Shown: positions 1 through 22,409, numbered from the stretch's first letter. The stretch: DNA of 64,000 nt from a virus (IMGVR_UViG_3300017917_001562:32001-96000); one strand, 5' to 3'. Notes: generated by a model from the letters alone, not told the origin. Numbers and translations: made by a program.

Positions 1-1
1 C

Positions 2-2303: not shown

Positions 2304-2328
2304 TTAATATTTGTGAAAGAGCTAGTCA

Positions 2329-3906: not shown

Positions 3907-4106
3907 CCGAATCAAATAAAAGAAGTTTAATTAAAACGATAAGTTGGCGCTTGACAGGATCCAGTGCAACCTTTATAATAACATATTTAATAGCTGGCGA
4001 TTTTGCAATCGCTGGCACTGTTGCTGTGATACAAATTATAGCTAATACTTTGCTTTATTATGTACACGAACGACTATGGAATAAAATCAATTGGGGCAGA
4101 AAGTGA
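3903..4106 (+). CDS. Small membrane protein (DUF2061-like)
   Basis: KTISWR...YYVHERLW pattern. Confidence 0.7.
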   Translation: MTESNKRSLIKTISWRLTGSSATFIITYLIAGDFAIAGTVAVIQIIANTLLYYVHERLWNKINWGRK

Positions 4107-4540: not shown

Positions 4541-4943
4541 TACTAAAAAACCAACAACACAGCTATTAGGCCGTTGGCAACCATGGCACCCAGGCCATAC
4601 AGCACTATTCAAAAAAGCACTGTTAGAAACAGGACAAGTTTGTATTATGGTGCGTGATGTTGGCGGTATTGTTGGATCAGATGCTGGCGCAGGAAGAACT
4701 GTTGCTCAAGACGATAATCCTTTTGACAGTGACACTGTAAGAAATAACATCATTGAAGCACTAAGTAAAGAAGGTTTTATGTACAATCATGATTATATAA
4801 TTATGTTTGTACCTAACATTGTAGACATCAGTTATGGCCGCGGGGTTGGGTATACATTTACGCAACATGACTTAGGCGAAGAAATACACAGCATTAGTGC
4901 TACTCAAATTAGAGCAAAGCTGAGAGCCGAAGGTAAACTGTGA
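4533..4943 (+). CDS. HxGH nucleotidyltransferase (cytidyltransferase-like)
   Basis: GRWQPWHPGH and ISATQIR motifs. Confidence 0.75.
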   Translation: MFDTKKPTTQLLGRWQPWHPGHTALFKKALLETGQVCIMVRDVGGIVGSDAGAGRTVAQDDNPFDSDTVRNNIIEALSKEGFMYNHDYIIMFVPNIVDISYGRGVGYTFTQHDLGEEIHSISATQIRAKLRAEGKL

Positions 4944-5374
4944 AACAAAAATTTCTAAAAGCATTTATGCAGACAGCAAAAACTTTTGCTGAACTTAGTC
5001 ATGCTCGCAGACTGCATGTGGGTGCTATTGTTGTTAAGGATGATAGAATTATCAGTATCGGTTATAATGGCATGCCTGCAGGGTGGGATAACGATTGCGA
5101 GAATCTAGTAGGATACGATCGTGGTGAGCCAGTACTGAAAACTAAACAAGAAGTTCTTCACGCCGAAACAAACGCCATCAGCAAATTAGCCCGTAGTAGT
5201 GAAAGCGGAGAAGGTGCTACTATGTTCATCACGCATAGTCCCTGCATAGAATGTGCTAAACTAATTTACCAAAGTGGTATTAGCAAAGTATACTACGGAC
5301 AACAATACCGTGATGATCAAGGTGTAAAGTTTTTAGAAAAATGCAACATTGAAATTCAACAATTAGATGTTTGA
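4940..5374 (+). CDS. dCMP deaminase
   Basis: GYNG, HAE and PCIEC zinc motifs. Confidence 0.92.
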   Translation: MKQKFLKAFMQTAKTFAELSHARRLHVGAIVVKDDRIISIGYNGMPAGWDNDCENLVGYDRGEPVLKTKQEVLHAETNAISKLARSSESGEGATMFITHSPCIECAKLIYQSGISKVYYGQQYRDDQGVKFLEKCNIEIQQLDV

Positions 5375-7007: not shown

Positions 7008-8097
7008 CAGCTTCTACTATAGTTTCAACTTCACTGTCAGTTAATTCAGGATATATTGGCAAACTTAAACATTCTGTGCAAAAAGCACTTGCTTGTCTGT
7101 ATAATTCACTGGCATAGTTGATATAAGGATAACCAACAGCATATTCATACAACGGCCTATCATAGTGTACTTTGCTTTCAATACCTGCTCGGCTTAAATG
7201 TAAACGCAGGGCTGACCTATCATTGCATTTGATCACATACTTACTCCACGCATGAACAGTGCCATTTGTAGTCAATGGCACATCTACATATAATTTTAAT
7301 GTTTCGTTATAATAGTCAGCAATTTGTTGTCTACGAGCTTGCCATTTGTTAAAGTATTTTAACTTAACTAACATTTGGGCACAGTCACTTTCGCTCATCT
7401 TGCTGTTAGTACCAGGATTTTCATGGTCTAAAGATTTGCCATTGTCTCTAAGATCTCGTAACAGTTTAGCATCTGCTAAGTTATCTACTAAGACCATACC
7501 ACCGGAACCGTAATTGTTTAAGTTCTTGGTAGGATCAAAACTTAATACACTGACTGTACCCAAGCTACCACTAGGTTGATCTCTATAGCTAGCCCCAAAG
7601 CTCTGTGCCGCATCTTCAATTATTTTAATGTTGTTATTAAAAAATTCAGTTAATAATTTAAATCTATCGTAGTCTACAGTGTTACCAAATAAGTTAGCGT
7701 ACATAATGCCACCTACCCCTGCACCTTTTAATGCATAGTCCATGCTTTCTAAATCTATTAATGCTTGGTCATCTACATCACATAACACAGGTTCGTTACC
7801 GTTTAGCAAAACGGAATTAATTGTAGCTACAAAACTGACAGTGGGTATTAATATCTTTGTGTTTTCAGCAAATAAGAGTTGTTGTGCAAAGATAAGGCCT
7901 TGGGTACAACTGTTAACAGCCACAGCATATCTACGACCGCATCTTAGTGCTATTTGTCTTTCGAATTCTTCAGTGAAATGGCCATCTAGCACTTGTCCAC
8001 TGGCATACACACGATCTGTTGCATCTAACAGTTCGTCTCGTAGATTTTGATATTGTCGCTTAATACCAAAAAAAGGAATTATAATTTTTTCTGCCAA
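6988..8097 (-). CDS. DegT/DnrJ/EryC1/StrS sugar aminotransferase
   Basis: EDAAQS, SFDPTKNL and LSLPIYP motifs. Confidence 0.9.
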   Translation of the reverse strand: MAEKIIIPFFGIKRQYQNLRDELLDATDRVYASGQVLDGHFTEEFERQIALRCGRRYAVAVNSCTQGLIFAQQLLFAENTKILIPTVSFVATINSVLLNGNEPVLCDVDDQALIDLESMDYALKGAGVGGIMYANLFGNTVDYDRFKLLTEFFNNNIKIIEDAAQSFGASYRDQPSGSLGTVSVLSFDPTKNLNNYGSGGMVLVDNLADAKLLRDLRDNGKSLDHENPGTNSKMSESDCAQMLVKLKYFNKWQARRQQIADYYNETLKLYVDVPLTTNGTVHAWSKYVIKCNDRSALRLHLSRAGIESKVHYDRPLYEYAVGYPYINYASELYRQASAFCTECLSLPIYPELTDSEVETIVEAVKDFYY

Positions 8098-9041
8098 TAT
8101 GTACTCGATTTAAACCAATTATAATATCTTTCAAATCCTTCGTCAACATCTACTTTAGGATCATATCCAAAGTCATGACGAGCAGCAGTGATGTTTAATG
8201 CACCGCGGCTTGGGAAATCTTGATCTTTATCGCGAACTTCAATGGTACCTTGTCCGGCAATTTTAACTGCTAGCTTGGCAGCATCTAACAATGTATAACT
8301 ATGGCTTTTGGTTATATTGTAAGTTTTGTTAACTGCTCGATCACTTAAAGTTGCTTGTGCTATACCGCGGGCCGCATCTTCTACATAAGTAAAATCTAAA
8401 GATTCGTTTGCACCATTTACTTTAAGCACACCACCACGCATAGCAGTTAGCATAAACTTGGATACTACGCGATCCTCAACATCATACTCACCATAAACAG
8501 CACTGGGACGAATGATTACATGATCAAAACATCCTCGTCTGGTATAATCTTTAGTTAGCCATTCTCCGGCTAACTTCATAATACCATATTGTCCCTGCGG
8601 GTTACAATTTGCTTGTTCAGATACATCGTCAGTAAAGTCACCGTAGACCATACTACTGCTGATATAAACAAACTTTTTTATTTTATGTATGCGTCCTGCT
8701 TCTAATAAGTTAATTAATCCAGTGGTCATTACTTCACTAGCTAAACTAGGATTGCTGTTAACTACTTTTTGTCTAGGAAAGCTAGCAAGATGAATTACTA
8801 CTTGCGGATGAAATGTCATAAACATATTTTCGACGCTGGTACGATTCGTAATGTCTACAGCATGTATGCTGGCGTTTATTCTACGCTTACGCTCTTGTTT
8901 TAGATAATCTAATTCGTCTTTGGGAATAAATCCGTAGTTAGTAAAAGTATCAATGACATAGCATTGATGCCCCTGTTGTTCTAAAAATCTAACAACATTG
9001 TGTCCAATAAAGCCACCGCCGCCTGTTATGAGTATTCTCAT
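8079..9041 (-). CDS. NAD-dependent sugar epimerase/dehydratase
   Basis: TGGGGFIG, SSSMVYG and YGIMK (YxxxK) motifs. Confidence 0.9.
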   Translation of the reverse strand: MRILITGGGGFIGHNVVRFLEQQGHQCYVIDTFTNYGFIPKDELDYLKQERKRRINASIHAVDITNRTSVENMFMTFHPQVVIHLASFPRQKVVNSNPSLASEVMTTGLINLLEAGRIHKIKKFVYISSSMVYGDFTDDVSEQANCNPQGQYGIMKLAGEWLTKDYTRRGCFDHVIIRPSAVYGEYDVEDRVVSKFMLTAMRGGVLKVNGANESLDFTYVEDAARGIAQATLSDRAVNKTYNITKSHSYTLLDAAKLAVKIAGQGTIEVRDKDQDFPSRGALNITAARHDFGYDPKVDVDEGFERYYNWFKSSTYWQKKL

Positions 9042-9042
9042 A

Positions 9043-9384
9043 TTATCCCCATTTTAATTTGAAATAAGTAATATCTTCTGCTCGAAGTTTAGCACTTATG
9101 GCAAATTGGTATCCAAATGTTACGAGATCAGCATGTTTGTGCCAGACTGGAGGTTCTATAGCATGTTCCATGATCCATTTACCTGCTTCACTTTGTTGCC
9201 ATTGCCATAACGGTTCTCCTGCGTACAATACAGGATCTTCGACATCGCTCATTTGAAATTTGTGAACTACAATTTCTTTAATTTCTTGTATTTTAACTTG
9301 ACCGTCGACCGTTACTTCGCGGAAACTGTGCTCCAACTTGTAAGGTTCACTAATTAAATCATATTGGTTTTTAGTGTAAGCCAT
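9043..9384 (-). CDS. Small protein, orphan member of the LxW C-terminal family
   Basis: Ends EDITYFKLKWG. Confidence 0.65.
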   Translation of the reverse strand: MAYTKNQYDLISEPYKLEHSFREVTVDGQVKIQEIKEIVVHKFQMSDVEDPVLYAGEPLWQWQQSEAGKWIMEHAIEPPVWHKHADLVTFGYQFAISAKLRAEDITYFKLKWG

Positions 9385-9385
9385 A

Positions 9386-9958
9386 TTATATTTCTTTAAT
9401 TTGAAACCCTTTAAAAACACCGCGAGACGGTATTTTCCCATTTCTCATTCTGTTAATAGTTGCATGGGTGTTAGGGATACTAACATTGAATTCTTTTGCA
9501 ATTTCTTTTAATCCCGCCACTATTTTAGTGGAGCCATTAGGATAATAAATTATATATTTTTTTGTATAGGAAAGTAACGATGGATCTATATTTTTAATCC
9601 AACTATTTTCTCCACTGTGCGCTTCTCTATTTTTTTGTATAGTTTCTTGTTTATGAGTTTTACCGAAGAATCCGTTTTTATCACCTGTCCTTGATTTAGC
9701 AGATTCTGACAATCTTCTTTTACCTTCGGGAGTCCAATTTTTTGGTCCTAATAATTTCATATAATTTGCTTCTTCGACGCCTATTTGTTTAGATAACGCC
9801 AAGTAAGCAATATGATCAAATTTATTGCCATATTGTTCATATAATTTTTTATGTGCTTCTGCGTGTTCTTCTATTGTTAGTTTAACTAAATTTTCGGGAT
9901 TATCTAAACCACCCATATGTTTAGGTACAATATGATGTATATGATAAATGGGCTTCAT
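9386..9958 (-). CDS. Free-standing HNH homing endonuclease with NUMOD3 motif
   Basis: HHIVPKHMGGLDNPENLVKLTIEEHAEAH and NGFFGKTHK motifs. Confidence 0.85.
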   Translation of the reverse strand: MKPIYHIHHIVPKHMGGLDNPENLVKLTIEEHAEAHKKLYEQYGNKFDHIAYLALSKQIGVEEANYMKLLGPKNWTPEGKRRLSESAKSRTGDKNGFFGKTHKQETIQKNREAHSGENSWIKNIDPSLLSYTKKYIIYYPNGSTKIVAGLKEIAKEFNVSIPNTHATINRMRNGKIPSRGVFKGFQIKEI

Positions 9959-9992
9959 ATTGTATTTAGTCTTTTAGGTGTACCTTTTAATA

Positions 9993-10895
9993 TTAAATAG
10001 CCATTGGTGCTTTAATTGCTTCATGGGATTTATAATCGATCAATTTGATATCTTCCATAGTAAACATAAAAATGTCTTTTATCTCATGATTTAACCATAG
10101 TTTCGGGAGATCAAGAGGTTCTCTGGACAGTTGTTCTTTTACTTGTTCTATATGATTAAGATATATATGTGCGTCTCCTAATACATGTACAAATTCGCCT
10201 ACATCTAATCCGCACACCTGTGCAATCATGTGTGTAAGCAGAGAGTATGATGCAATATTAAATGGAACACCAAGGAAAAGATCTGCACTACGCTGGTACA
10301 TTTGGCAACTCAGCTTATTATCTGCAACATAAAACTGACTGAATACATGACAGGGAGGCAGTGCCATATCGTTTAATTCGCCTGGATTCCAAGCTGTTAA
10401 AATATGCCTACGACCACTGGGATCAGCTTTAATACCCTTAATTAACTCAGTTAATTGATCGACTTCTTTGTTTACTAATTGACTGTGTCCTATTAGTTCT
10501 TTGTCTTTGGTCTGCCAGTGACGCCATTGTACGCCATATACACGACCTAAGTCGCCAGGGTATTGCGGACCTTTGGGAGGAAATTCTTTGTACTTATTAG
10601 TCCAATAAGGTGCTGTGGCATTGGCAGTCCAGATAGTGCTCTTTTCAGAGTTCCTGCTACCATGTAATATCTCTCGCAGGCGTAGTTCATCTCCCGAACC
10701 TTCAATGAACCACAGCAACTCTGACACCACTGATTTCCACGCTAGTTTTTTAGTTGTAACTGCGGGAAAGCCTTTACTTAGATCGTACCGTTGTTGCATA
10801 CCAAAACAACTAATAGTACCTACGCCCGTGCGATCTGTTTTAGTCGTGCCATTATCTAGCACAAATCTTAATGCATTTAAATATTGAGTTTCCAT
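9993..10895 (-). CDS. thyA: Thymidylate synthase
   Basis: DRTGVGT, MALPPCH, YQRSADLFLGVPFN and HIYLNH motifs. Confidence 0.97.
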   Translation of the reverse strand: METQYLNALRFVLDNGTTKTDRTGVGTISCFGMQQRYDLSKGFPAVTTKKLAWKSVVSELLWFIEGSGDELRLREILHGSRNSEKSTIWTANATAPYWTNKYKEFPPKGPQYPGDLGRVYGVQWRHWQTKDKELIGHSQLVNKEVDQLTELIKGIKADPSGRRHILTAWNPGELNDMALPPCHVFSQFYVADNKLSCQMYQRSADLFLGVPFNIASYSLLTHMIAQVCGLDVGEFVHVLGDAHIYLNHIEQVKEQLSREPLDLPKLWLNHEIKDIFMFTMEDIKLIDYKSHEAIKAPMAI

Positions 10896-10904
10896 GTGTT
10901 TATT

Positions 10905-11414
10905 TTAGACTAAAGGTCTAAAGATGTCAATGTTTTTATACACTGTCCAATTACATTTTTTATCTAAACTTGGGCAAGCACTGCGAGCTTGAAATAAACT
11001 AAGATATCGCCTCAAATCAATTTGAACATCTGTTCTATATTGGCCTTTGAAATGAGTAATATGCGCTTCGTCTACTAAGTCTTTAGTGTCTAATAGCAGT
11101 TGTGGACCACCTACGATCCATACTGTCTTATCAGGATTGTCTTGGCTTATTTTTTTAATAGCAGCCGAAACATCGCCTCTGATGGTTTTAACACCTGCAT
11201 ACCCAAACAAAGGTCTTGAAGTCACAACATAAGTTGTTCGTCCTGGTAATGGTTTAGGCATTTGAGGATCATCCCAAGTACGCCTACCCATTATAACAAT
11301 TTGGCCTTGTGTTTGTTCTTTAAAATATACTAGATCTTCTTTATGGTGCCATGGCAAGGATCCGTTAAGACCCATGCCGCCCCAATGGTCTACTGCAAAT
11401 ATACTTTTAATCAT
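10905..11414 (-). CDS. folA: Dihydrofolate reductase
   Basis: LPW, IMGRRTW, PLPGR and IVGG motifs; adjacent to thyA. Confidence 0.92.
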   Translation of the reverse strand: MIKSIFAVDHWGGMGLNGSLPWHHKEDLVYFKEQTQGQIVIMGRRTWDDPQMPKPLPGRTTYVVTSRPLFGYAGVKTIRGDVSAAIKKISQDNPDKTVWIVGGPQLLLDTKDLVDEAHITHFKGQYRTDVQIDLRRYLSLFQARSACPSLDKKCNWTVYKNIDIFRPLV

Positions 11415-11749
11415 AGTTTATTTAACAAGCGATCTGTTTCAGGTTGAACAGTTTTTTCTACCATGTCCAAGTCTACGAAAAAATCTACATTTTCAATATA
11501 CATGTCAAGTTCTTCTAGTCTTGTATTAACATGAGCTTCGAGTTCTTCGTGATCGACACCTTCGGCCAGTAACTTTTTTATATCTACTACTACGATGGTG
11601 CCGTCTTTGAGATTTACATTCAGTTTCTCTAATACTTGAATAGGAACTTCTTTTTTATCGACTTGTTTTAATATATCACGCCAGGCTGTTTTATTATTAA
11701 GATTCAGCTTTTTGGGTTTTGGCTTTTTTGGGTTTTGTTGTTGTGCCAT
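11411..11749 (-). CDS. Hypothetical protein
   Basis: ORF tiles with its neighbours. Confidence 0.65.
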   Translation of the reverse strand: MAQQQNPKKPKPKKLNLNNKTAWRDILKQVDKKEVPIQVLEKLNVNLKDGTIVVVDIKKLLAEGVDHEELEAHVNTRLEELDMYIENVDFFVDLDMVEKTVQPETDRLLNKL

Positions 11750-12383
11750 TGTTGTCAGTCGGTGTACTAGATAAGCCTTGTGCTTCTTTTTGTAATCTTT
11801 CTGCTTCAGCTAACAATTGTTTAGCTTCTGCAATCATCTTTGCCGCTTGTACTTGACGCTGAGTAGCAAGCTGCTCATCTGTCAATACATCATTAATACT
11901 TATCGTATTTACTGCCTCTGCGGGTTGACTACGACTGTTTTTAGGAGCTCTTAGTTCATTGACTGCAACATTATTACGCTTGCCTGTTAGACCACTGTTC
12001 TTGTCTAAGTCAGCAAGTTCTTTAATTGCTTCTTCACCCATGGCCATTTTATCTAAAATAGCATTTAATTCATCTAAACGAACTGTGCTTTTGACATCAG
12101 GCGTGACAATAACTTGATTGGTAGGTACTTTTTTAATCATACCTTCTTTATGTAGTGTTTGTAGTGCATTGTTACCGTCAGCAAAAGTATAACGGAACAA
12201 ATAATCACTAAACTCTTTTGCTTGTTGTCCAGACTCGCTTTCCAATGCATCCATTAATCCATCATGAATGTGACGGGGCATGGTATCGGGGTAGCAGATA
12301 AGACACATATGATCCTCGCCGGGGACCTTGCGATATAAAATAACTACCTTACGGCTGCTATGTTTTCCAACATGTTTAATCAT
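11697..12383 (-). CDS. Hypothetical protein with coiled-coil C-terminus
   Basis: AAGGA RBS before MIKHVG start. Confidence 0.7.
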   Translation of the reverse strand: MIKHVGKHSSRKVVILYRKVPGEDHMCLICYPDTMPRHIHDGLMDALESESGQQAKEFSDYLFRYTFADGNNALQTLHKEGMIKKVPTNQVIVTPDVKSTVRLDELNAILDKMAMGEEAIKELADLDKNSGLTGKRNNVAVNELRAPKNSRSQPAEAVNTISINDVLTDEQLATQRQVQAAKMIAEAKQLLAEAERLQKEAQGLSSTPTDNNGTTTKPKKAKTQKAES

Positions 12384-12606
12384 TTTGATTTCCTTGGGTT
12401 TGAGCCTCTGTAGGTTGAGGCTGTTGAATGGCACCGCTTGCTTGTAAAAAAGCAAACATGCGTTCATATATTCCACCAATAAGGGTGAATTCTTCTGGTC
12501 TAAAAGCACCGCGAGTGGATGCTAGATTTAAAATCTCTAAAGTTCTTACAAGGTCTTCTAATTGCAGTGTTACTTGAGATTGTGCTGGGCTTGTGTCGTC
12601 AGACAT
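12376..12606 (-). CDS. Hypothetical protein
   Basis: GGAG RBS and TAAATA motif upstream. Confidence 0.7.
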   Translation of the reverse strand: MSDDTSPAQSQVTLQLEDLVRTLEILNLASTRGAFRPEEFTLIGGIYERMFAFLQASGAIQQPQPTEAQTQGNQND

Positions 12607-13046: not shown

Positions 13047-13517
13047 TCAAATTTCATCTTGTTTCTTGCAAAGTTCGCAAACAGTTAAAAATTGTTCGTA
13101 GGCATTACGAACTGCGGGATGAGTCATCAGCTTATCTGCTTCTTGTTCTAACGCCTTAATACCAGCTTCGGCAATATCACGGATGCTGTTGTAATGTACA
13201 TAACGACCTCGTTCGCCCATTACTTTCTTAAAGTGTTCCCATGCGTCATATTGTTCGTTAGTTAGTACTCTATTATTTTCTTCATCACGCTTCATGTCTG
13301 AAGCATCACCTATTGCCTTACACATTTTATCAGCTGCAACACGACCTGCGGCAATCATGGCTGCATAGTTTGGATTAATGTTGTAGAAGGTGCTTTGCCC
13401 ACCCGGATAACTCACGATCAAATGTGTACCTTTTGGAAGGGCATCCATTAGTGTTTGATCATATTCTGAAACAGGCTTATACCGTCGACCTACTTTTTCA
13501 TAGAATATCTTCTTCAT
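13047..13517 (-). CDS. Hypothetical protein
   Basis: 156-aa ORF. Confidence 0.7.
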   Translation of the reverse strand: MKKIFYEKVGRRYKPVSEYDQTLMDALPKGTHLIVSYPGGQSTFYNINPNYAAMIAAGRVAADKMCKAIGDASDMKRDEENNRVLTNEQYDAWEHFKKVMGERGRYVHYNSIRDIAEAGIKALEQEADKLMTHPAVRNAYEQFLTVCELCKKQDEI

Positions 13518-13811: not shown

Positions 13812-13840
13812 ATTATATAGCCAAAACGGTTTTATGTCAA
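13812..13840 (-). promoter_or_regulatory. Sigma70-type promoter
   Basis: TTGACA-17 bp-TATAAT on the minus strand. Confidence 0.75.
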
Positions 13841-13842
13841 TG

Positions 13843-14130
13843 TTACATCCATTTTAATCTAAACCAATTGGCATCTTCTGGAGATTCAAAAGCTATTTTT
13901 ACGCCTTGAATTTTATATTCACTTTGGCAATTTTCTTTTAACCAATCTCTTTTTTGTTGACATAAATTATCTGTGACCATATGATTGGTAACATGAACAA
14001 CATATCCGGACCCAAGAGCATTGTTTACCAATGTCCACCCCGATACTTCTACCCAAACACTAAAGTCTATTTCGTATTGAACCTGCTCAGCTAGTTGATT
14101 TAGAATGTGTTCTTGTATATTATTGTTCAT
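13843..14130 (-). CDS. Array member (ends ANWFRLKWM)
   Basis: Family C-terminal motif. Confidence 0.75.
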   Translation of the reverse strand: MNNNIQEHILNQLAEQVQYEIDFSVWVEVSGWTLVNNALGSGYVVHVTNHMVTDNLCQQKRDWLKENCQSEYKIQGVKIAFESPEDANWFRLKWM

Positions 14131-14132
14131 TG

Positions 14133-14354
14133 TTAACTCCATCTAAGACAAAAAGCTGTCAGTGTCGGTTTATCGGGCAACACCACAGTCATACCTTGGA
14201 CCTTACTTTTATTTTGTTTACACCACACTTGTAGATCATCGTAGTGTATATTCCAGTATGCTATGTCTGACAGCACAATCAACAATTCGCCGCCTGTTAC
14301 TAGCGTATCAGGAATAATGAATCTTCGTCGGTGACCGTTGTCAAGTAAACTCAT
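14133..14354 (-). CDS. Array member (ends TAFCLRWS)
   Basis: Family C-terminal motif. Confidence 0.75.
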   Translation of the reverse strand: MSLLDNGHRRRFIIPDTLVTGGELLIVLSDIAYWNIHYDDLQVWCKQNKSKVQGMTVVLPDKPTLTAFCLRWS

Positions 14355-14710
14355 CTTACTAAGTTTAACATGGTTTGATATTGTTGCCAAAGATCTTGAA
14401 GTCCGGGATGTTGATGTCTAAGCCTAGTTTCTTCTTCTTGCTTATATACAATTTCTTGAATATCTCGCTTTAGGTCTACTGCATGTTGCTTTTCTTCCAA
14501 CCATTGATCGTGTTCCATTAAAGCACGAAAACGATCTTCAGGCATGTGAATTTCTACACAAGTAAGATCCTCATATGGATTATTGTTATAAATGTTTGGA
14601 TCACTGGCCCATATTTTATAATCAACTCGTCTTACTCGTCTATGCATTTTTGTACTAGGCACTACATAAGCATCATATTTGTAACAAAACTCTGTAAAAT
14701 CTTTTGTCAT
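14351..14710 (-). CDS. Hypothetical protein, not a family member, within the array
   Basis: ORF coupled to its neighbours. Confidence 0.7.
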   Translation of the reverse strand: MTKDFTEFCYKYDAYVVPSTKMHRRVRRVDYKIWASDPNIYNNNPYEDLTCVEIHMPEDRFRALMEHDQWLEEKQHAVDLKRDIQEIVYKQEEETRLRHQHPGLQDLWQQYQTMLNLVR

Positions 14711-14711
14711 T

Positions 14712-14996
14712 TTAACTCCATTTTAATAACCATAAAGCTATATCGTCTTTATGTGTAAATCCCCACCATTCTTGTTGATTATGAAAGTCGGAACTGTAAG
14801 ACAGAATTTGGCCGCGGCAATGCAAATTACACCAAGTCCAGTATTCGTTGGAAAATTTAACAGGTTTAACACAAACAAACCATTTACTGGGCTTGTGCGG
14901 TTTAACTTGTTCTGGCACCCAAAGTCCACTATCATCGTCACCAAGTCCTGGGCGAATATCGTTCCAAAATTCTTTGAACTGCTTTCGATTTATCAT
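14712..14996 (-). CDS. Array member (ends ALWLLKWS)
   Basis: ATGA-coupled start; family motif. Confidence 0.75.
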   Translation of the reverse strand: MINRKQFKEFWNDIRPGLGDDDSGLWVPEQVKPHKPSKWFVCVKPVKFSNEYWTWCNLHCRGQILSYSSDFHNQQEWWGFTHKDDIALWLLKWS

Positions 14997-15205
14997 GACC
15001 ACTTCAACAATGTTAACAAGGCTTTTTTCTCGTCTGCGAAATGCCAAGTAGTACCATAAGTGGGGCTCCTTAGATTCATATCATATGTACGCCACCAGTC
15101 TTGTTTAAACTCACCTACATAAGTTTCTAACCACTCATTAAATGATACATCTGGTACTAATGAACGATGAAGACCCTTGAGTTGACTTTGATGTATTTTA
15201 TTCAT
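14993..15205 (-). CDS. Array member (ends LLTLLKWS)
   Basis: Family motif and junction repeat. Confidence 0.75.
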   Translation of the reverse strand: MNKIHQSQLKGLHRSLVPDVSFNEWLETYVGEFKQDWWRTYDMNLRSPTYGTTWHFADEKKALLTLLKWS

Positions 15206-15207
15206 AC

Positions 15208-15438
15208 TTACGCCCATCGCAGTTTCCATATTACATATAGTTCTGGAGTCAAGTATAAAGCAGTATTACTGTCGGGATCATCTCGCATTGGTCGCCATAA
15301 ATCAGGATCTTGCACTCGGATCCACTCAAACATACCCTCGGGGGTCCTAAATCCTTCAAAGCTTGGATCATCAAAACAATATGTTTTGTATCCGTGTGTA
15401 AAAAGTTCGTAACGACCGTTGCGTGGCAAATGACTCAT
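15208..15438 (-). CDS. Array member (ends VIWKLRWA)
   Basis: Family motif. Confidence 0.75.
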   Translation of the reverse strand: MSHLPRNGRYELFTHGYKTYCFDDPSFEGFRTPEGMFEWIRVQDPDLWRPMRDDPDSNTALYLTPELYVIWKLRWA

Positions 15439-15647
15439 CGGTTTCCTTTTAAAATAAACCACACAGCATCCTGCTCACGCTCAAACCACACTGTTCGACT
15501 ACCGTAGTAGAGATAGAACTTACCAGGCGAATCCATTAACTGCAATTCACGCTTGAGTTGGGCATAGTTCCAATTTAGGTTGATTGTGCGTAGAACAGGA
15601 TGCCAGTGCTGTTGCCGAACCTTTTTATCTTTGTTCCAATATTTCAT
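15435..15647 (-). CDS. Array member (ends AVWFILKGNR)
   Basis: WFEREQDAVWFILK. Confidence 0.75.
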   Translation of the reverse strand: MKYWNKDKKVRQQHWHPVLRTINLNWNYAQLKRELQLMDSPGKFYLYYGSRTVWFEREQDAVWFILKGNR

Positions 15648-15871
15648 GACCACCTTAATATAAACCAACTCATATCTTTACGAGCATCCGGATAATCTAA
15701 AAAATAAAAATTAATTAAATCGTGTGTAATAGTATTACCATCACTGTGATATTGATTAGTAATGTAATGTGGACAGTTTTTCTTTGCCCATTGAATAGCA
15801 CTATACAAATCAAGTTTACTACGGTCTACTGTTATGTAGTTATCAGTAATCTTCATATGCCAGTTGTCCAT
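15644..15871 (-). CDS. Array member (ends SWFILRWS)
   Basis: Family motif and junction repeat. Confidence 0.75.
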   Translation of the reverse strand: MDNWHMKITDNYITVDRSKLDLYSAIQWAKKNCPHYITNQYHSDGNTITHDLINFYFLDYPDARKDMSWFILRWS

Positions 15872-16083
15872 CAACTCCACCTTAACAAAAATGCTGTATA
15901 ATCTTCTTCATGCTCAAATACCGCAGTAACAAACTTGTTGTCTTTGTCCTCGACCATTTTGCAGCCAAACTCCTGTAACCATTTTTTTCGGCTTTCTTCT
16001 AGTCCCAACGACTGAACACCAAGTGTTTCACGCCACGCACGACGAAACATTGAATGATGCTTTTTTAAATCTACTTCAATCAT
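15871..16083 (-). CDS. Array member (ends TAFLLRWS)
   Basis: Family motif. Confidence 0.75.
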   Translation of the reverse strand: MIEVDLKKHHSMFRRAWRETLGVQSLGLEESRKKWLQEFGCKMVEDKDNKFVTAVFEHEEDYTAFLLRWS

Positions 16084-16138
16084 GACCACCTCAATGCTAG
16101 CATTGTAGCATGATTTGCATATTTTCGTCTAACAAATT

Positions 16139-16221
16139 GATAAATAAAAATGCGAGTCGCGATGCGTCAACATCCACCCGCCCTAACAGTTGAAAAGGAA
16201 CTATCAGCATGAATATTTATT
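16139..16221 (+). promoter_or_regulatory. TAAATA late-type promoter plus structured leader of endonuclease gene
   Basis: Same architecture as 49839-49918, with compensatory stem changes. Confidence 0.65.
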
Positions 16222-16583
16222 CCCCGGCACGACCCCCATCTGGGTATTATGTTTACGCATATATAAGATCAAAAGATTCGAAAACAGGTAAAGCAGGGAC
16301 TCCGTATTACATTGGTAAAGGCAAGGGCAATCGAGCCACTCGACGTCACGGAAAAAACCCTATTCCAGATTTTGATTTCATAGCAATATGTGAAGAAAAT
16401 TTAACTGAAATTGGTGCATTAGCGATTGAACGATTCCTTATACGTGTTTGGGGGAGAAAAGATATCGGTACCGGAATTTTGTTAAACAGAACAGACGGCG
16501 GGGATGGGACATCGGGTAGATCAGCAGAGTCAATCTGCACCCAAACTGCGCCACCAAGGTCTACCCATCTTGGATCATTATGA
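16209..16583 (+). CDS. GIY-YIG-like homing endonuclease, probably C-terminally truncated
   Basis: YYVYAY...YYIGKG, E-rich helix, [10 protein letters not shown]; after ~16520 it reads into the antisense of the host gene. Confidence 0.7.
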
Positions 16584-16731
16584 TCTACAATTAAAGGGCC
16601 CACAGGCCACCTTACTTTGATAACAACACCAGGAACAAACCTCCACCAAAGTTTTTGCCAAATGTTTAATCCGCAAGGCAAATATCTGCCAGACGGCAAT
16701 TGAAATAAACTTTTAATTTCCCACTTAGCCA

Positions 16732-17133
16732 TTATGAATATTTCAATGCTATCATTACGGCATCTTGCTCATTGTTAGTTGCTACAAACACTTTATCCTC
16801 ACCGCCTAGTTCGTTTACTGTCCATTCCCAATCAGTAGAAGGCTCACACATAACACGATGAAACTCCCAAACAGCATTTTCACCTAAAGCACGAGCAGGC
16901 CAAAAATAATGTTTTGTATCTTCTCGCACGGTCCACCCAAACGGTTGTTCTAAGTTAAAAAACTTGTTAGGATCAACGATAACAATATGTTTAAAATTTC
17001 TAAAAATATCTTTGATACGAGTAGCACGGACATTAACGGTTTGTTCATACCATGCCTTATACTCACGCTCTGCTTTTGTATAACCAGTTGTGCGAGTAAG
17101 ATACCAATCTTTGATATTGTCGAATAAAATCAT
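16732..17133 (-). CDS. Array member (ends VMIALKYS)
   Basis: EQDAVMIALKYS. Confidence 0.75.
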   Translation of the reverse strand: MILFDNIKDWYLTRTTGYTKAEREYKAWYEQTVNVRATRIKDIFRNFKHIVIVDPNKFFNLEQPFGWTVREDTKHYFWPARALGENAVWEFHRVMCEPSTDWEWTVNELGGEDKVFVATNNEQDAVMIALKYS

Positions 17134-17136
17134 GGT

Positions 17137-17376
17137 TTATTCTGCTAATACTTCAAACAGTTCAGCATACTGTGTTTCGGGTTCATCAACGAATCCAGTA
17201 TAGACCCATACTCTGCGACAATAAACTTTTTTAAGCCACACCCAACGGTTGTTAATAGTTTTATGCGGCAACAACACAAATGTTTCAACCCAGTCGTGTT
17301 CTACCGCGGTTATGTCGCCTATGTTTGGGATAAACATTGCTCCTCTAACTATTTCTTTAAATAGGGAAAAACTCAT
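17137..17376 (-). CDS. Hypothetical protein, not a family member, within the array
   Basis: Starts at a junction ATGA; W-x-LP-K...W pattern resembles 28864-29121. Confidence 0.7.
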   Translation of the reverse strand: MSFSLFKEIVRGAMFIPNIGDITAVEHDWVETFVLLPHKTINNRWVWLKKVYCRRVWVYTGFVDEPETQYAELFEVLAE

Positions 17377-17594
17377 GCCCACCTTAACGCTAATAAAATG
17401 TAAATTTTTTCATGAACATCAAATACATTATAGTTGATATGCCATTTTTCGTCAATGTTTTGAAACCATTGTTTATCTTCCTGCTCACAGAAAGATGTTC
17501 TTAACCAAATACTAACTTCTTTTTTACAAGATATAGTATACCAAGATTCATTATTAACTATAGCCTTAGTCCTTACTTTGAAGTTAGATTTCAT
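17373..17594 (-). CDS. Array member (ends ILLALRWA)
   Basis: Family motif and junction repeat. Confidence 0.78.
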   Translation of the reverse strand: MKSNFKVRTKAIVNNESWYTISCKKEVSIWLRTSFCEQEDKQWFQNIDEKWHINYNVFDVHEKIYILLALRWA

Positions 17595-17839
17595 ACCCAC
17601 CTCAACGCAAACATAGTATATTTTTTCTCATCTACCACTGCAACCTGCACAACTTCGTATCCGTGCCTACCATATATATCTTGTTTAGGACATAGATCTA
17701 ATCTGAGCCCGGCTGTTTGTTCAATATGATACTTAAACCCAAGCATACGGTCCTCTCCAGAACTGGGCCAATCTGGGTCATATTCCATATAACATTTGTT
17801 TAGCAAACGATTTACGGATTTTGTATCTATAAATCTCAT
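17591..17839 (-). CDS. Array member (ends TMFALRWV)
   Basis: Family motif and junction repeat. Confidence 0.78.
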   Translation of the reverse strand: MRFIDTKSVNRLLNKCYMEYDPDWPSSGEDRMLGFKYHIEQTAGLRLDLCPKQDIYGRHGYEVVQVAVVDEKKYTMFALRWV

Positions 17840-18048
17840 GAGCTCCACCTCAATGCAAACATAGTTGCATCCTTGCTATTGCGGAAGTAATAATCCACAC
17901 CCTTCATTGAGGGCACTCGATTCCAGCGACCTTTAAACGGGCCCATGTTTTCGCCTAGCCATTCCTCAATCTTGTAATGCCCGGCGTGATCCATGGGCAT
18001 AGAGATAGGAATCTTTGCTGGCCAAATTTCTTTCTTTAGTTGTCTCAT
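17836..18048 (-). CDS. Array member (ends TMFALRWSS)
   Basis: Family motif and junction repeat. Confidence 0.78.
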   Translation of the reverse strand: MRQLKKEIWPAKIPISMPMDHAGHYKIEEWLGENMGPFKGRWNRVPSMKGVDYYFRNSKDATMFALRWSS

Positions 18049-18335
18049 GACCACCTCAACTCTAAGAATGTTACCATTTCCGGAGGAACTAAGAATACAC
18101 TTTCAAACCATAGGTACCATGTGAACTTTTCTCGTGAGAAATGTTCGTTCATCCACACAACCTCTGGACCTAATACATCTACGCAAACATAATCTTCATA
18201 TCCCATGGGAGGGGCACGGCCAGTATCAACACGCGGCGGAATCAGGAATGTTGATTCATATTCGGCCAACCATTTAGCGTGAGCGGCTAGTTCGTTATCC
18301 GGTATCAGAGCAACACTTTGGAAATTTACTTTCAC
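18045..18335 (-). CDS. Array member (ends TFLELRWS), GTG start
   Basis: Family motif and junction repeat. Confidence 0.75.
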   Translation of the reverse strand: MKVNFQSVALIPDNELAAHAKWLAEYESTFLIPPRVDTGRAPPMGYEDYVCVDVLGPEVVWMNEHFSREKFTWYLWFESVFLVPPEMVTFLELRWS

Positions 18336-18565
18336 GACCACCTCAACATAAACCAAGTATACGCTTGTTCATCATAAAAGTCAATATACCTATCACCGTA
18401 ACCGCTTAACGGATTTATGGGTTTGGCTATCCAAAAGTTTGCCGACCAGTCCATGAGAGCATGATTGATTTCTTCCTCGCCAAAACTATCTGGTAAAAAG
18501 TTATACCACCATCTTGGGATTTCAGATGGATGGCGATCTTCTTCAAATATCTTTATTCTAATCAT
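18332..18565 (-). CDS. Array member (ends TWFMLRWS)
   Basis: Family motif and junction repeat. Confidence 0.78.
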   Translation of the reverse strand: MIRIKIFEEDRHPSEIPRWWYNFLPDSFGEEEINHALMDWSANFWIAKPINPLSGYGDRYIDFYDEQAYTWFMLRWS

Positions 18566-18771
18566 GACCACCTCAACACAAACATCATATAATCATCTAC
18601 ACGGCGAAATTCAAATACACCTTCACTAACATAACGCCAGTTCTGTTCCTTGAATCGTCCTCTACACCATTCCATCGCAGGCAACCAGCCCCAGTGCTCA
18701 TACTCCTTGTGTGCAGGTTGAGGCACACTTGCAATAATCCAACTGTTGATAGGATTTCTTGGCAATTTCAT
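18562..18771 (-). CDS. Array member (ends MMFVLRWS)
   Basis: Family motif and junction repeat. Confidence 0.78.
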   Translation of the reverse strand: MKLPRNPINSWIIASVPQPAHKEYEHWGWLPAMEWCRGRFKEQNWRYVSEGVFEFRRVDDYMMFVLRWS

Positions 18772-19022
18772 GACCACCTCAGAATAAACATACTAGCGTC
18801 TTTTTCTTTTTCAAACATCCAGATGCTACCTCGACCTTGATGGTTACCTTGTAAGTTTTCTCTGCACCATTTTTTGATTTCGTATATCTGCGTCTCGTGC
18901 ATCCTTGCGGGCCACTTTATCTCAACCTTTGTATAGCCTAGTTTAATCATCATGTCGCACATGATTTCCCAGTCTGTTTCTTCCTGGAGGGTTTTTGCAA
19001 GGTCTTGTTTTATTATTGTCAT
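18768..19022 (-). CDS. Array member (ends SMFILRWS)
   Basis: Family motif and junction repeat; resembles 13843-14130. Confidence 0.78.
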   Translation of the reverse strand: MTIIKQDLAKTLQEETDWEIMCDMMIKLGYTKVEIKWPARMHETQIYEIKKWCRENLQGNHQGRGSIWMFEKEKDASMFILRWS

Positions 19023-19240
19023 GACCACCTCAACATAAACAAAGTAGCATGTGCGGGATCAGAAAACCACATTACATATCCAGAGCCGGGTTCTAGTCGC
19101 CAGTAGTGTTCGCTAGCTGGTTTTCCATATTGACAGTTATTAGGACTACCAAAAGTTTTTAAACACCATGCCCACCAAACAGGCAGGCCTTGTTGATTAT
19201 ATACATGTCTATGTTTCATGGGTACAATTACAATATTCAT
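19019..19240 (-). CDS. Array member (ends TLFMLRWS)
   Basis: Family motif and junction repeat. Confidence 0.78.
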   Translation of the reverse strand: MNIVIVPMKHRHVYNQQGLPVWWAWCLKTFGSPNNCQYGKPASEHYWRLEPGSGYVMWFSDPAHATLFMLRWS

Positions 19241-19482
19241 GACCACCTCAACGCAAATAACATAGCCTTTTTTTCGTCTACGATAGAGATCATAGTATCA
19301 CCTAACCTTGCGCTATACACTCCCCACTCATCGCCCGCTTCAGGCTCAATATCAATGCCGTCAGGCCAACTATTTTTTAACCAACGGCCACCGGGTCCTA
19401 CATTGTTGTATAACCAATGTTCTAACTCTACAAACTGTATCCGGTGTTTGCTCATAATGGTAGTAGCATCAAAGTTAATCAT
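19237..19482 (-). CDS. Array member (ends MLFALRWS)
   Basis: Family motif and junction repeat. Confidence 0.78.
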   Translation of the reverse strand: MINFDATTIMSKHRIQFVELEHWLYNNVGPGGRWLKNSWPDGIDIEPEAGDEWGVYSARLGDTMISIVDEKKAMLFALRWS

Positions 19483-19727
19483 GACCACCTCAGCGTTGTA
19501 AGCATCATGTCTTGCTCAAATTCAAAATAAAATCGGCCGGTTGATTCACAAAAACTATATCGGCCATGGCTGGGATAATTGTTACACCAGTTTACAATAG
19601 CTGCTTCTTTAACGAGCCATTCTAAAGTACCAGTATCGTAACTATCGAACTCTTCCTTATTCCAAAAGTTAGTAGAGTCTACAACATATTTGAAATTTTC
19701 TATGTCTAAGTTGGCTATTTTCTTCAC
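19479..19727 (-). CDS. Array member (ends MLTTLRWS), GTG start
   Basis: Family motif and junction repeat. Confidence 0.75.
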   Translation of the reverse strand: MKKIANLDIENFKYVVDSTNFWNKEEFDSYDTGTLEWLVKEAAIVNWCNNYPSHGRYSFCESTGRFYFEFEQDMMLTTLRWS

Positions 19728-19936
19728 ACCCACCTCAACAGTGCAAACATTCTATCTTTTTCATTTGTAATATACCACAAGTCAACACCATTAAGTGTGC
19801 CCTGGTATTCTGTTTCTATAGAATTTTTTTCACACCACTTATGAAAGTTTATTCTTTGCTGTGAGCTAACAGTAAAGCCCCGCGGATCACCTACTAATTT
19901 TACTCTGCCCTTTTCTGCAAAAACTTTAGTGGTCAT
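19724..19936 (-). CDS. Array member (ends MFALLRWV)
   Basis: Family motif and junction repeat. Confidence 0.78.
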   Translation of the reverse strand: MTTKVFAEKGRVKLVGDPRGFTVSSQQRINFHKWCEKNSIETEYQGTLNGVDLWYITNEKDRMFALLRWV

Positions 19937-20151
19937 GCCCACCTCAGTGCAAACCACTCTTTGTTTTCTCTAACTTGAAATATGTATCCGTTAGAGCCTG
20001 AACTTAGAAGAAAGTATTCTACTTTGTTTTCGCGCATCCAACCGTAGATGTCAAGCCACTCCTGAAATGTGCGAACAAGGTAAGTAGGGTAACCTGCCCA
20101 ACCTGGGTAGCTAGTAGATTCGACTTTCATATTCATTGTGTTATCAATCAT
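19933..20151 (-). CDS. Array member (ends EWFALRWA)
   Basis: Family motif and junction repeat. Confidence 0.78.
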   Translation of the reverse strand: MIDNTMNMKVESTSYPGWAGYPTYLVRTFQEWLDIYGWMRENKVEYFLLSSGSNGYIFQVRENKEWFALRWA

Positions 20152-20482
20152 GAAAATCGTAATCGTAGCAGTGTCTAATTTCGTGTCCTAAATTTGAAGT
20201 GCTGGTGTTGGTACCTGTAATTACAGTACACTGATCACCTCGCCAAACAGCACAACCAACAATTCTATTTTTACCAAATCTACCATTGGTGCTTTTATCA
20301 CAGATTTGTTGCAGCTCTTGGTCAGACACTTGACGCCAAGTAATAGTTCTTACTCTTGTTTGTGATTTAGCAGTACTGATGTGTTCGGCGTTGTATTCCC
20401 ATGCCTTAACGGGGTTGACAGGTTGAGCACTACAACCAGATACTGCTGCAACAATCGCAAAAACTAAAGACATTTTTTTCAT
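20144..20482 (-). CDS. Putative lipoprotein with HExxH motif
   Basis: Signal peptide with VSGC lipobox; LGHEIRHC. Confidence 0.6.
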   Translation of the reverse strand: MKKMSLVFAIVAAVSGCSAQPVNPVKAWEYNAEHISTAKSQTRVRTITWRQVSDQELQQICDKSTNGRFGKNRIVGCAVWRGDQCTVITGTNTSTSNLGHEIRHCYDYDFHD

Positions 20483-20483
20483 G

Positions 20484-20708
20484 TTAATTCCACCTTAACA
20501 AAAACATTGTCAAATCTTTTTGATTTTTAAATTCAAACATATCGTAGGCAATCCTGTAACCACAATGATTTTCCCTGCACCATTCTACCATTTCAGCTAT
20601 AGGATAGCCTAAATAATGACCTTCTTGATCAAGTATAAATTCATCCACCGAAATTTTTACAGCAAGCCTAAGCCTTGGATCTGGTTCAATGGCGTAGGCT
20701 TTGCTCAT
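20484..20708 (-). CDS. Array member (ends TMFLLRWN)
   Basis: Family motif; start overlaps the vWA gene stop. Confidence 0.78.
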   Translation of the reverse strand: MSKAYAIEPDPRLRLAVKISVDEFILDQEGHYLGYPIAEMVEWCRENHCGYRIAYDMFEFKNQKDLTMFLLRWN

Positions 20709-21985
20709 TATGCTTTGGCCAATTCCTTGGCTCGTTCATAAATTGCCCAAACACCAAAGGGAGGTTCTGCTTGCTCGTTGCCTTTGATAATGAATACAGT
20801 ATCGCAGTATTCGCTGTCACCCCACTCACCAAAAGGCATACCGTCAGTGAACATGATAAACTTCTTAGGTTGAATATCATTTTCCTTCATGTATTCCCAA
20901 TTAGCCATAAAGTCAGTACCACCACCACCTTGGGGCTCATAGGTAAGAATGTCCTCTAGTGATTCTGAACTGTAAACTTGGTGATTATACACTGCGGTGT
21001 CAAAACTCCACACTTGAATCTTGTACTCGTCATAGGCTTCCATAATGCCTTTGATCTCAGCCATAAAAGCCTTGATGTCTTCCTCGCCAATAGAACCCGA
21101 AGTGTCAATGGCAATACAAACATCAATCTGTTGACCCGGGATCATACCAGGCATAACAGCATCCAAGTGCCAGCTACGGCGTGAAGGGCGCAACCAAGTA
21201 AAGTCGTTTTTAACGGTGCTTTGGATTTGTTGTTCCAACAGCTCACGCCAGTTAACTACAGGCCTAGTCAAGTCTTTGATCAGACGCTTAACACCTGACG
21301 GCAAATTGCTGGCGCCTGTGGCCTGTGCGGCCTGTAGCAGTGCTTCGCGGATTTCGTCTTTGATGGCCTGTCGTTCTTCTTTGCTGAGACGGGGACGACC
21401 TTTGCCTTCTTTCTCGTCACCATCTTCGTCGCTACTGCCGTTGTCACCATCACCGTCCAAGTGCTCGTCTAACAGTTGATCCATCAAATCGCTGATGTCA
21501 ATTTTTTCTGCATTTTCATAAAGGTCGTCGTAGACTTCTTCAGCACTCCAACCTTTGTATTTGACATCATACAGGCAAGGGGTAATTTTGTCACCAATCC
21601 GTTGCTCAATCAAATCACTGTTAACACAATAGTCAGCGGCACAATTAAACAAACGGCGATCGCGGTCGCCATTACGACCCATATGGTCATAGACATTGTG
21701 CAGAACTTCGTGGCCAAACAAGAACTCAAGTTCTTTGGGTTTCAGTTTATTAACGAACTCAGTGTTGTAATAAAATTTACGACCATCGGTTGCAGCAGTA
21801 CCAAGCCAACTGTCTGCATTAACCAATTGCAGTCTGGTAGCAAGGTTACCAAAGAATGGTGCCTTAAGCAAGAGACCGATACGAGCAGTAGTCAATTTTT
21901 CACGCACTGCACGATCCAAAGCAGGATCGGTATTGTCAGTGAGACGACCTGCGATGTCTTTTTGTTTACTGTCTGATGTAGCCAT
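20708..21985 (-). CDS. Metallopeptidase-vWA domain protein (DUF2201-type), MoxR partner
   Basis: TAATDG and HEVLH; IDTSGS MIDAS, GGGGTDF, FTDG. Confidence 0.88.
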   Translation of the reverse strand: MATSDSKQKDIAGRLTDNTDPALDRAVREKLTTARIGLLLKAPFFGNLATRLQLVNADSWLGTAATDGRKFYYNTEFVNKLKPKELEFLFGHEVLHNVYDHMGRNGDRDRRLFNCAADYCVNSDLIEQRIGDKITPCLYDVKYKGWSAEEVYDDLYENAEKIDISDLMDQLLDEHLDGDGDNGSSDEDGDEKEGKGRPRLSKEERQAIKDEIREALLQAAQATGASNLPSGVKRLIKDLTRPVVNWRELLEQQIQSTVKNDFTWLRPSRRSWHLDAVMPGMIPGQQIDVCIAIDTSGSIGEEDIKAFMAEIKGIMEAYDEYKIQVWSFDTAVYNHQVYSSESLEDILTYEPQGGGGTDFMANWEYMKENDIQPKKFIMFTDGMPFGEWGDSEYCDTVFIIKGNEQAEPPFGVWAIYERAKELAKA

Positions 21986-22010: not shown

Positions 22011-22039
22011 ATTATAACACACTTGCGAATTTTTGTCAT
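22011..22039 (-). promoter_or_regulatory. Early sigma70-like promoter with AATTC spacer motif
   Basis: ATGACA-aaaattcgcaagtgtgt-TATAAT. Confidence 0.6.
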
Positions 22040-22052
22040 TAATACCAAAGTA

Positions 22053-22346
22053 TTACAACCATTTAAGTGTAAACAGTTCTAGTTCTTGATTTGTTTTAAG
22101 ATAAATTAATGGAGTATCGTATTTAATATCCTCTAATCTATAAGACCAAGATTGGTTCCTAGTAAATTTTGCATGACTTAAATGAAGGTTGAGTTGGACA
22201 CCCATACCCCATATTTCATTGCACCAATGACACCATTCTACAAATTTAGGAATTCTAGAGTCAAAGGGTTCGTGCAGTTCAATCCTGTATGCAAAATGCC
22301 CATATCCTCCATGACGGCGATCTAATTTTACAACCTTGGCGGGCAT
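22053..22346 (-). CDS. Array-family member between the ATPase and vWA genes (ends ELFTLKWL)
   Basis: Family motif; WCNEIWG. Confidence 0.7.
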   Translation of the reverse strand: MPAKVVKLDRRHGGYGHFAYRIELHEPFDSRIPKFVEWCHWCNEIWGMGVQLNLHLSHAKFTRNQSWSYRLEDIKYDTPLIYLKTNQELELFTLKWL

Positions 22347-22409
22347 GATTGTTACTAGTAATTGGGGACTTACGGGAGAAAGGAGTTGGAAAGCCCTGCC
22401 CCGTAGTCC

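Follow-up and report, generated by a model that had tools for sequence, protein, structure and literature searches.

A 14-nucleotide coding and translational overlap coincides with gene gain, loss and exchange in a paralogous gene array of a large freshwater phage and its relatives

The mosaicism of phage genomes has two classic explanations: random illegitimate joins followed by selection, or exchange at conserved boundary sequences. Such boundary sequences are well documented in only a few cases, the best known being the promoter-early stem-loops (PeSLs) of T4-type phages. PeSL cassettes occupy the hyperplastic regions of these genomes, where an intergenic sigma-70 promoter and terminator stem-loop provide each gene with its own transcription signals, and PeSL mini-circles have been demonstrated in T4-type phages (Arbiol et al. 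2010, PMC2839356; Comeau et al. 2014, PMC4122927). Here we describe a tandem array of approximately 25 tightly packed small genes in a stretch of 64,000 nt (IMGVR_UViG_3300017917_001562:32001-96000, hereafter the window) that belongs to a 108.6-kb record from a large freshwater phage. As the record is estimated to be only 31% complete, the source is probably a jumbo phage with a genome of roughly 350 kb. Consecutive genes of the array are joined by a recurrent 14-mer, TGAGGTGGTCATGA, which contains the end of one gene, a Shine-Dalgarno (SD)-like sequence and the start of the next. The array appears to be a second, mechanistically different case of a boundary sequence, in which the boundary is a 14-nt coding and translational overlap.

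PeSL-mediated modular shuffling is the closest described system. In both cases the small, non-essential genes of a hypervariable region, most of them ORFans, have a short conserved regulatory repeat between them, and it is to these repeats that the insertions, deletions and replacements distinguishing close relatives map. Neither system involves a site-specific recombinase, and the primary role of the repeat appears to be in gene expression. Unlike PeSL regions, the array has no intergenic space, the genes overlapping by 4 nt, and promoter- and terminator-like sites occur at chance level (29 and 10 sites, respectively, between 13000 and 23800, compared with 28.3 and 7.4 expected). The repeat consists of 14-15 nt of coding sequence, SD and stop/start inside what is most simply viewed as one translationally coupled operon, and the genes that it flanks are paralogues of a single family. 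The array had been described in an earlier note on this DNA as integron-like and integrase-free. The likeness to integrons is a functional analogy: ordered, small and mostly promoterless genes are probably read from an upstream promoter, the number, order and content of cassettes vary between relatives, and a recurring site marks their boundaries. In contrast to integrons, the array has neither an IntI-type tyrosine recombinase, its neighbours encoding vWA-metallopeptidase and AAA+ proteins, nor an attI site. It also lacks an attC-like imperfect palindrome of 55-140 nt; conservation is limited to 14-15 nt and the gene overlaps leave no room for such an element. Furthermore, the array cassettes are of one protein family, and their exchange is presumably driven by homology or microhomology. 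The integrase-free part of the description is upheld by the lack of any match to the tyrosine and serine recombinase families (PF00589 and PF00239) in five array-bearing records, comprising that of the window (G000) and four others, one of which is 97% complete, while all control genomes were positive in the PF00589 search. The 97%-complete relative contains a RecA/UvsX-like gene. General recombination, annealing or slippage at microhomology would therefore be the most likely route of exchange. Deletions between short repeats were classically described in T4 rII and in T7. As in these deletions, and as in unequal crossing-over within tandem families, exchange between misaligned repeats duplicates or deletes whole units, and the products of short-repeat deletion are flanked by, or collapsed onto, one repeat copy. 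The array differs from a conventional tandem family in that the gene bodies are too diverged, confining exchange to a 12-17-bp junction under translational and protein constraint, and in that it also admits non-family genes and the transfer of single units between phages.

The 14-mer is present in seven exact copies in the window, exclusively on the minus strand and at the positions listed in the earlier note (Table 1), while chance would produce no copy at all (maximum of 0 in 100 shuffles); the remainder of the 108.6-kb record holds no further exact copy. Allowing up to three mismatches adds seven near copies within the array span 14993-19946, where about eight had been claimed, and returns 17 matches over the whole window compared with 4.3 ± 2.2 expected, three of these being chance-level matches outside the array. 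Consecutive copies of the junction are spaced by 206-300 bp. On the coding strand the junction reads (T)TG AGG TGG TCA TGA, that is Leu-Arg-Trp-Ser-stop of the upstream gene, and the ATG (or GTG) with which the next gene starts lies within it, the ATGA giving a 4-nt overlap of stop and start. At all exact copies GAGG is located 5 nt 5' of the ATG and is accompanied by the ATGA overlap, an anatomy consistent with translational coupling. The reading of each copy as (L)RWS-stop, SD and next start, as proposed previously, holds throughout, with one exception: no intact gene precedes the copy at 16080. High information content is restricted to positions -14 to 0 relative to the stop, and it drops to about zero directly after the ATGA. 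The translated open reading frames (ORFs) also confirm that a K-W, R-W or K-Y ending is retained by members in which the 14-mer is missing. The ATGA-coupled operons of bacteria and phages resemble the array in the overlap of the upstream stop with the next start and in the embedding of the SD in upstream coding sequence. Ordinary ATGA junctions differ from gene to gene, whereas in the array the same 14-mer is repeated seven times because the upstream proteins have identical last four residues.

The arrays of related phages were retrieved using the vWA protein as an anchor, and their flanking genes are ∼80% identical in DNA. Between the conserved flanks the array is absent in L090 and L106, and extends over ∼2 kb in L088, 3 kb in L012, 4 kb in L032, 6.9 kb in the window and 7.4 kb in L010 and L011. 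The window has only scattered cassettes in common with its relatives, at ∼70% identity and in a different order. The absence of the array from L090 and L106 indicates that the locus is a hot spot of insertion and expansion and not an ancestral fixture. In these two loci, where the vWA protein is 85% identical, the conserved downstream gene lies ∼100 nt after the vWA gene, with ∼2.4 kb of unrelated DNA beyond it.

Three independent close pairs (93-98% identical) display whole-gene insertions, deletions, replacements and duplications flanked by 12-17-bp copies of the junction. L008 contains two genes (514 bp), flanked by AGGTGGTCATGA, that are lacking in L012 (98.5% identical), and the same two-extra-gene form was recovered from another sample in L009, with 16 differences in 12,639 bp. 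In the pair L010 and L011 (∼95% identical) one extra gene in L011 is flanked by the 17-mer TTGAGATGGGCATGAAA, two extra genes in L010 are flanked by a 16-mer, and one non-family gene in L010 occupies the place of two family genes in L011, both ends of the replacement lying inside TTGAGGTGGTCAT. This non-family gene (L010, 9954-10292) begins with the ATG of a junction and is terminated by the first TGA in the following 14-mer, which it reads in a different frame. L010 also carries a duplication that is bounded by junctions and adjoined by gene remnants. In an independent lineage, L219 has 11 additional cassettes interleaved among those of L204 (93% identical), with all block ends at family stops, and L194 contains a recent tandem duplication, the repeated unit being delimited by a junction at either end. 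Across four close pairs, 32 of the 49 homology-block ends, with each breakpoint counted in both genomes, fall within -25 to +8 nt of a family stop, compared with a null fraction of 0.09 (p about 4e-22). Two other differences were set aside. A recent translocation of the ‘Ae' cassette between L010 and L011 was ruled out, as the copies are only 60% identical and thus old paralogues, and the difference between L200 and L202 is a 27-nt tandem slippage within a gene that has no connection to the junction.

Cassettes are also shared by phages that are otherwise divergent. Blocks of 200-300 bp that are 88-94% identical, with both ends at junctions, are common to otherwise dissimilar arrays. The homology between one cassette of the window and L196 (Table 1) sets in at a junction's ATGA and ends within the following junction, with no relationship between the cassettes on either side. 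A cassette common to L175 and L206 shows 91.9% identity between its two bounding ATGA sequences, compared with 71.7% for the polB genes of the two records, which points to the recent transfer of one gene between divergent phages. Junction-precise indels, replacements and duplications, as well as single-gene transfers between phages, are visible in public data. These events and the junction-bounded cassettes support the proposal of the earlier note that crossover between junctions adds, removes or reorders whole genes, with the ends of gains, losses and replacements in relatives falling in the repeat.

The constancy of the 14-mer can be traced to three superimposed constraints. TGG, as the sole Trp codon, fixes one triplet, while the ATGA overlap fixes the third base of the last codon together with the TGA stop, and a Ser residue at this position then forces TCA. 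The G of TTG or CTG, the AGG and the GTC together form GAGGTGGTC, an extended match to the SD. The common 3' tail of bacterial 16S rRNA is GAUCACCUC, with which GAGGTGGTC can pair over 9 nt (one G.U) in a host that has this tail. Outside the array AGG accounts for 8% of Arg codons, TCA for 13% of Ser codons and TTG for 21% of Leu codons, and GAGGTG is found 5' of 9 of the 23 array genes versus 0 of 112 non-array genes; the codon choice at the junction therefore fits selection for the SD. In members with an AGT Ser codon, GGAG arises instead from TGG-AGT. As all positions of the 14-mer are constrained by the L-R-W-S codons, the SD or the ATGA, its conservation is over-determined and needs no selection for recombination. 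The earlier note held that its proposal would fail if breakpoints lay off the junction and conservation was fully explained by the SD and ATGA coupling. The former is contradicted by the block ends described above, whereas the latter can hold once the L-R-W-S codons are included.

A search of IMG/VR for two exact 14-mers 180-210 nt apart returned 55 stretches on ∼50 contigs, with GC contents of 33-54%. One record, IMGVR_UViG_3300044613_002694 (G001, loci L228-L232), is a 94-kb fragment of 34% GC with 98 matches to the hidden Markov model (HMM) of the family encoded by the array, such that a large part of the contig is occupied by this small-protein family in arrays on both strands, and junction uniformity is very different between the strands. 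In the plus-strand arrays, which comprise 80 family ORFs, an identical 15-mer is present 34 times even though most of the cassette bodies cannot be aligned, and the 14-mer recurs up to 37 times in this one relative. The minus-strand array contains no exact copy, with variable residues after LRW and heterogeneous junctions. A uniform junction is therefore array-specific and is demanded by neither the family nor the host. Such uniformity is compatible with descent and strong selection in coupled arrays, or with concerted evolution. It is conceivable, although we consider it doubtful, that gene conversion or second-order selection keeps the uniform LRWS/SD/ATGA junction identical and that the arrays are recombinase-free cassette libraries of up to ∼100 genes per phage, a phage counterpart of the integron whose units are swapped among jumbo phages (72% polB identity), possibly via excised circles.

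The explanation that we judge likely is that the 14-mer is the overlap point of paralogous genes, held in place by protein sequence, SD and ATGA, and that it serves as a 12-17-bp recombination microhomology. In an array that is probably co-transcribed, the 14-mer joining consecutive tiny paralogous genes would carry three signals: the C-terminal Leu-Arg-Trp-Ser-stop, GAGGTGGTC for pairing with the ribosome, and the ATGA that couples translation of the next gene. These constraints would suffice to keep the 14-mer near-identical while the gene bodies diverge beyond alignability at the DNA level. The junction would then be the only DNA common to neighbouring genes, and would therefore act as the microhomology. 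General rather than site-specific recombination, or replication slippage, could join any two copies, unequal exchange within a genome leading to whole-gene deletion or duplication, and exchange between co-infecting relatives to the insertion, replacement or transfer of single genes. Each product would retain an intact C-terminus, ribosome site and start, and the role of the junction as a hot spot would be a by-product instead of a selected function.

Several observations weigh against this explanation. Conservation of the junction and its use in crossover are causally inseparable, protein, SD and ATGA explaining each position of the 14-mer, and the 9-nt pairing assumes that the host has the common bacterial 16S tail. 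The window's own record, in which no recombinase was found, is 31% complete. Not all breakpoints are at the junction: a four-gene insertion distinguishing L010 and L011 (E3) has its left end at a junction and its right end 20-55 nt inside the next gene, the left end of a divergent allele in the same pair (E5) is ∼13 nt after the junction ATGA, and truncated gene remnants exist (L010 ∼13143-13221; window ∼16080-16130). Survivorship contributes to the pattern, as whole-gene indels in a gene-dense, overlapping array must end near gene boundaries, and all of the relatives compared are metagenome assemblies.

Were survivorship the entire explanation, illegitimate breakpoints would be random, selection would retain the products that end at gene boundaries, and the 14-mer would be conserved for translation and protein only. 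This is consistent with the ability of L-R-W-S, SD and ATGA to account for every base, with the off-junction breakpoints and remnants, and with the overlap of the genes, through which any whole-gene event ends near a junction. The events are, however, flanked by exact direct repeats of 12-17 bp within which the switch takes place, as is characteristic of repeat-mediated joining. In addition, no event in the L010/L011 pair is at a non-repeat gene boundary, although ∼40% of the boundaries are without the repeat; partial deletions should be tolerable in small accessory genes, but remnants form the minority; and cassettes that moved between phages at 72% polB identity have both ends exactly at ATGA. 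Survivorship alone is thus an unlikely account. A second possibility is that concerted evolution or second-order selection keeps an exact 15-mer, making the array an exchangeable cassette library. The contrast between the two strands of G001, the recurrence of the same 14-mer in ∼50 contigs across a broad range of GC, and the identity of junctions between mostly unalignable bodies are what such homogenization would produce. Descent and purifying selection on a strong SD in coupled arrays would also yield array-specific uniformity, the contigs had been selected on the basis of two exact copies, and second-order selection is hard to demonstrate; we consider homogenization decidedly improbable.

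The GIY-YIG-like ORF inside the window's array, and the sharp, recognition-site-like bounds of the repeat, could indicate that the junction is the target of a dedicated enzyme. This would be either a recombinase of the site-specific type used by integrons, or a homing endonuclease whose cut at the junction triggers repair-mediated copying of cassettes. The ORF, however, breaks a gene body rather than a junction, and the arrays examined in relatives do not contain it. Nor does the repeat continue into a longer or structured element past its 14-15 nt, and the five array-bearing records lack PF00589 and PF00239 recombinases. The L010/L011 and L204/L219 pairs suggest equal shuffling in endonuclease-free relatives, and the action of a dedicated enzyme is very improbable. 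As all of the sequences compared are metagenome contigs, and repeats are classic points of misassembly, chimeric contigs that jump between strains at the junction also have to be considered. Usual assembler k-mers are generally longer than the 12-17 bp of the repeats, the form seen in L008 and L009 was assembled independently in two samples, and reading frames are intact throughout the arrays. Misassembly on this evidence is scarcely credible as the source of the pattern, and the use of a translationally constrained overlap as microhomology remains the preferred explanation.

Table 1. Features of the array and its surroundings in the window.
Feature	Position	Strand	Remarks
Tandem array, ∼25 tightly packed small genes	13843..20708	-	6.9 kb; ORFs, C-terminal tails, alignment A1, HMM
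Exact 14-mer	16080..16093	-	only stranded C-terminal remnant of split family-like gene precedes
Exact 14-mer junction (LRWS-stop / SD / ATG)	18045..18058	-	
Exact 14-mer junction	18562..18575	-	
Exact 14-mer junction	18768..18781	-	
Exact 14-mer junction	19019..19032	-	
Exact 14-mer junction	19237..19250	-	
Exact 14-mer junction	19479..19492	-	
Near copy, 1 mismatch, LKWS	14993..15006	-	
Near copy, 1 mismatch, TTA Leu codon	15644..15657	-	
Near copy, 2 mismatches, LRWA	17373..17386	-	
Near copy, 2 mismatches, LRWV	17591..17604	-	
Near copy, 1 mismatch, GTGA with GTG start	18332..18345	-	
Near copy, 3 mismatches, LRWV, GTG start	19724..19737	-	
Near copy, 1 mismatch, LRWA	19933..19946	-	
Single cassette matching L196, 88.6% nt identity over 255 bp	18332..18565	-	otherwise dissimilar arrays
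Disrupted family-like gene	16094..16732	-	N-terminal part 16346-16732; C-terminal remnant ∼16080-16130
GIY-YIG-like ORF, antisense in disrupted gene	16209..16583	+	phrog_15526, E 7.7e-16; no Pfam match
Metallopeptidase-vWA (DUF2201) gene	20708..21985	-	stop abuts first array gene; conserved upstream anchor
Solitary family member, ends ...FTLKWL, no 14-mer	22053..22409	-	between AAA+ and vWA genes; position conserved
Promoter-like site, 11/12 with TG (extended -10), 5' of vWA gene	22011..22039	-	consensus match only
Perfect sigma-70 consensus, 12/12 (TTGACA-17-TATAAT), directly after last array gene	13812..13840	-	consensus match only

Of the ∼25 array genes, ∼21 encode members of one hyper-divergent family of 70-133 amino acids, the others being a few non-family anchor genes. 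The homologous members adjoin on one strand, as in a tandem paralogous family. In alignment A1 they are 13-37% identical to the reference member, and their hallmarks are the Trp of a ‘W-C-x-x-N' helix and a C-terminal tail F-x-L-[RK]-W-x, W52, L81 and W83 being almost invariant. A profile built from 58 members gave 21 matches in the array (13846-20603) and one to the solitary nearby gene. Searched against 1.84 billion proteins, the family profile matched 4,673 representative clusters (50% identity), all of them small proteins ending in ...F.LRW[SA], some with two tandem domains. A very large, uncharacterized family of small phage proteins is thereby exposed, with up to 98 copies on a 94-kb fragment, and the speed of its turnover suggests that it acts at the interface between phage and host. 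In P0002, P0012, P0014 and P0138 two LRW-tailed domains are arranged in tandem, which would be the expected product of a lost junction stop or of the fusion of neighbouring cassettes. In the distant family members P0008, P0009 and P0020 the LRW-tailed domain is fused to an N-terminal stretch that matches the profile of the T4 Gp23 major capsid protein (PF07068, up to E 7.6e-11) over its first ∼40 residues, and in an ESM Atlas cluster the Gp23-like N-terminus is present in 13% of members. This N-terminus could be a capsid-targeting or propeptide-like signal, in which case some members of the family would be packaged.

The AlphaFold2 (AF2) model of a family member predicts a small alpha/beta fold with confidence (predicted local distance difference test score, pLDDT, 86.7). 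Neither the window members nor distant relatives matched a Pfam or PHROG family, and a Foldseek search of the PDB with the model returned no neighbour at E<=0.001. The fold neighbours in BFVD and the ESM Atlas are exclusively uncharacterized viral proteins, including those of Agrobacterium phage Atu_ph07 and Burkholderia phage BcepSauron. Among cultured phages, megablast of the region detected only a 109-bp match to Salicola phage SCTP-2, tblastn of one family member gave no match, and Atu_ph07 contains only four weak, dispersed matches to the family HMM.

The gene that precedes the junction at 16080 is split, ∼260 nt of extra DNA separating its N-terminal part from the C-terminal remnant, which reads ...RRKYANHATMLALRWS followed by the stop (...HATMLALRWS). 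The counterpart is unbroken in relatives, as in L010:10557-10994, which encodes 145 amino acids ending in ...IMALQWS. The GIY-YIG-like ORF located antisense in the disrupted gene is probably a homing-endonuclease insertion.

Upstream of the array are a MoxR-type AAA+ gene and then the metallopeptidase-vWA gene. The promoter-like site 5' of the latter is the likely start of a vWA-plus-array transcript, and together with the perfect consensus that follows the last array gene it may bracket this unit, the second site marking its end. Within the array, the non-family anchor gene at 20144-20482 (minus strand) encodes 112 amino acids with a lipoprotein-like signal (…VSGC) and a C-terminal HEIRHCYDYDFHD motif, and is conserved in L010 and L011 (56% amino acid identity); its product is likely a small secreted or membrane metalloprotein. 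The regions further from the array (1-12500 and 26000-62500) display a wealth of auxiliary metabolism genes that is unusual for a phage. These encode several radical-SAM/SPASM proteins, a carbamoyltransferase, a DegT aminotransferase, an NAD epimerase/dehydratase, a thymidylate synthase, an IMPDH/GMP-reductase-like protein, an FAD oxidoreductase and a cytidylyltransferase. The same metabolic-rich flanks encode a 1215-amino-acid protein that contains a sigma-70 region 4 domain.

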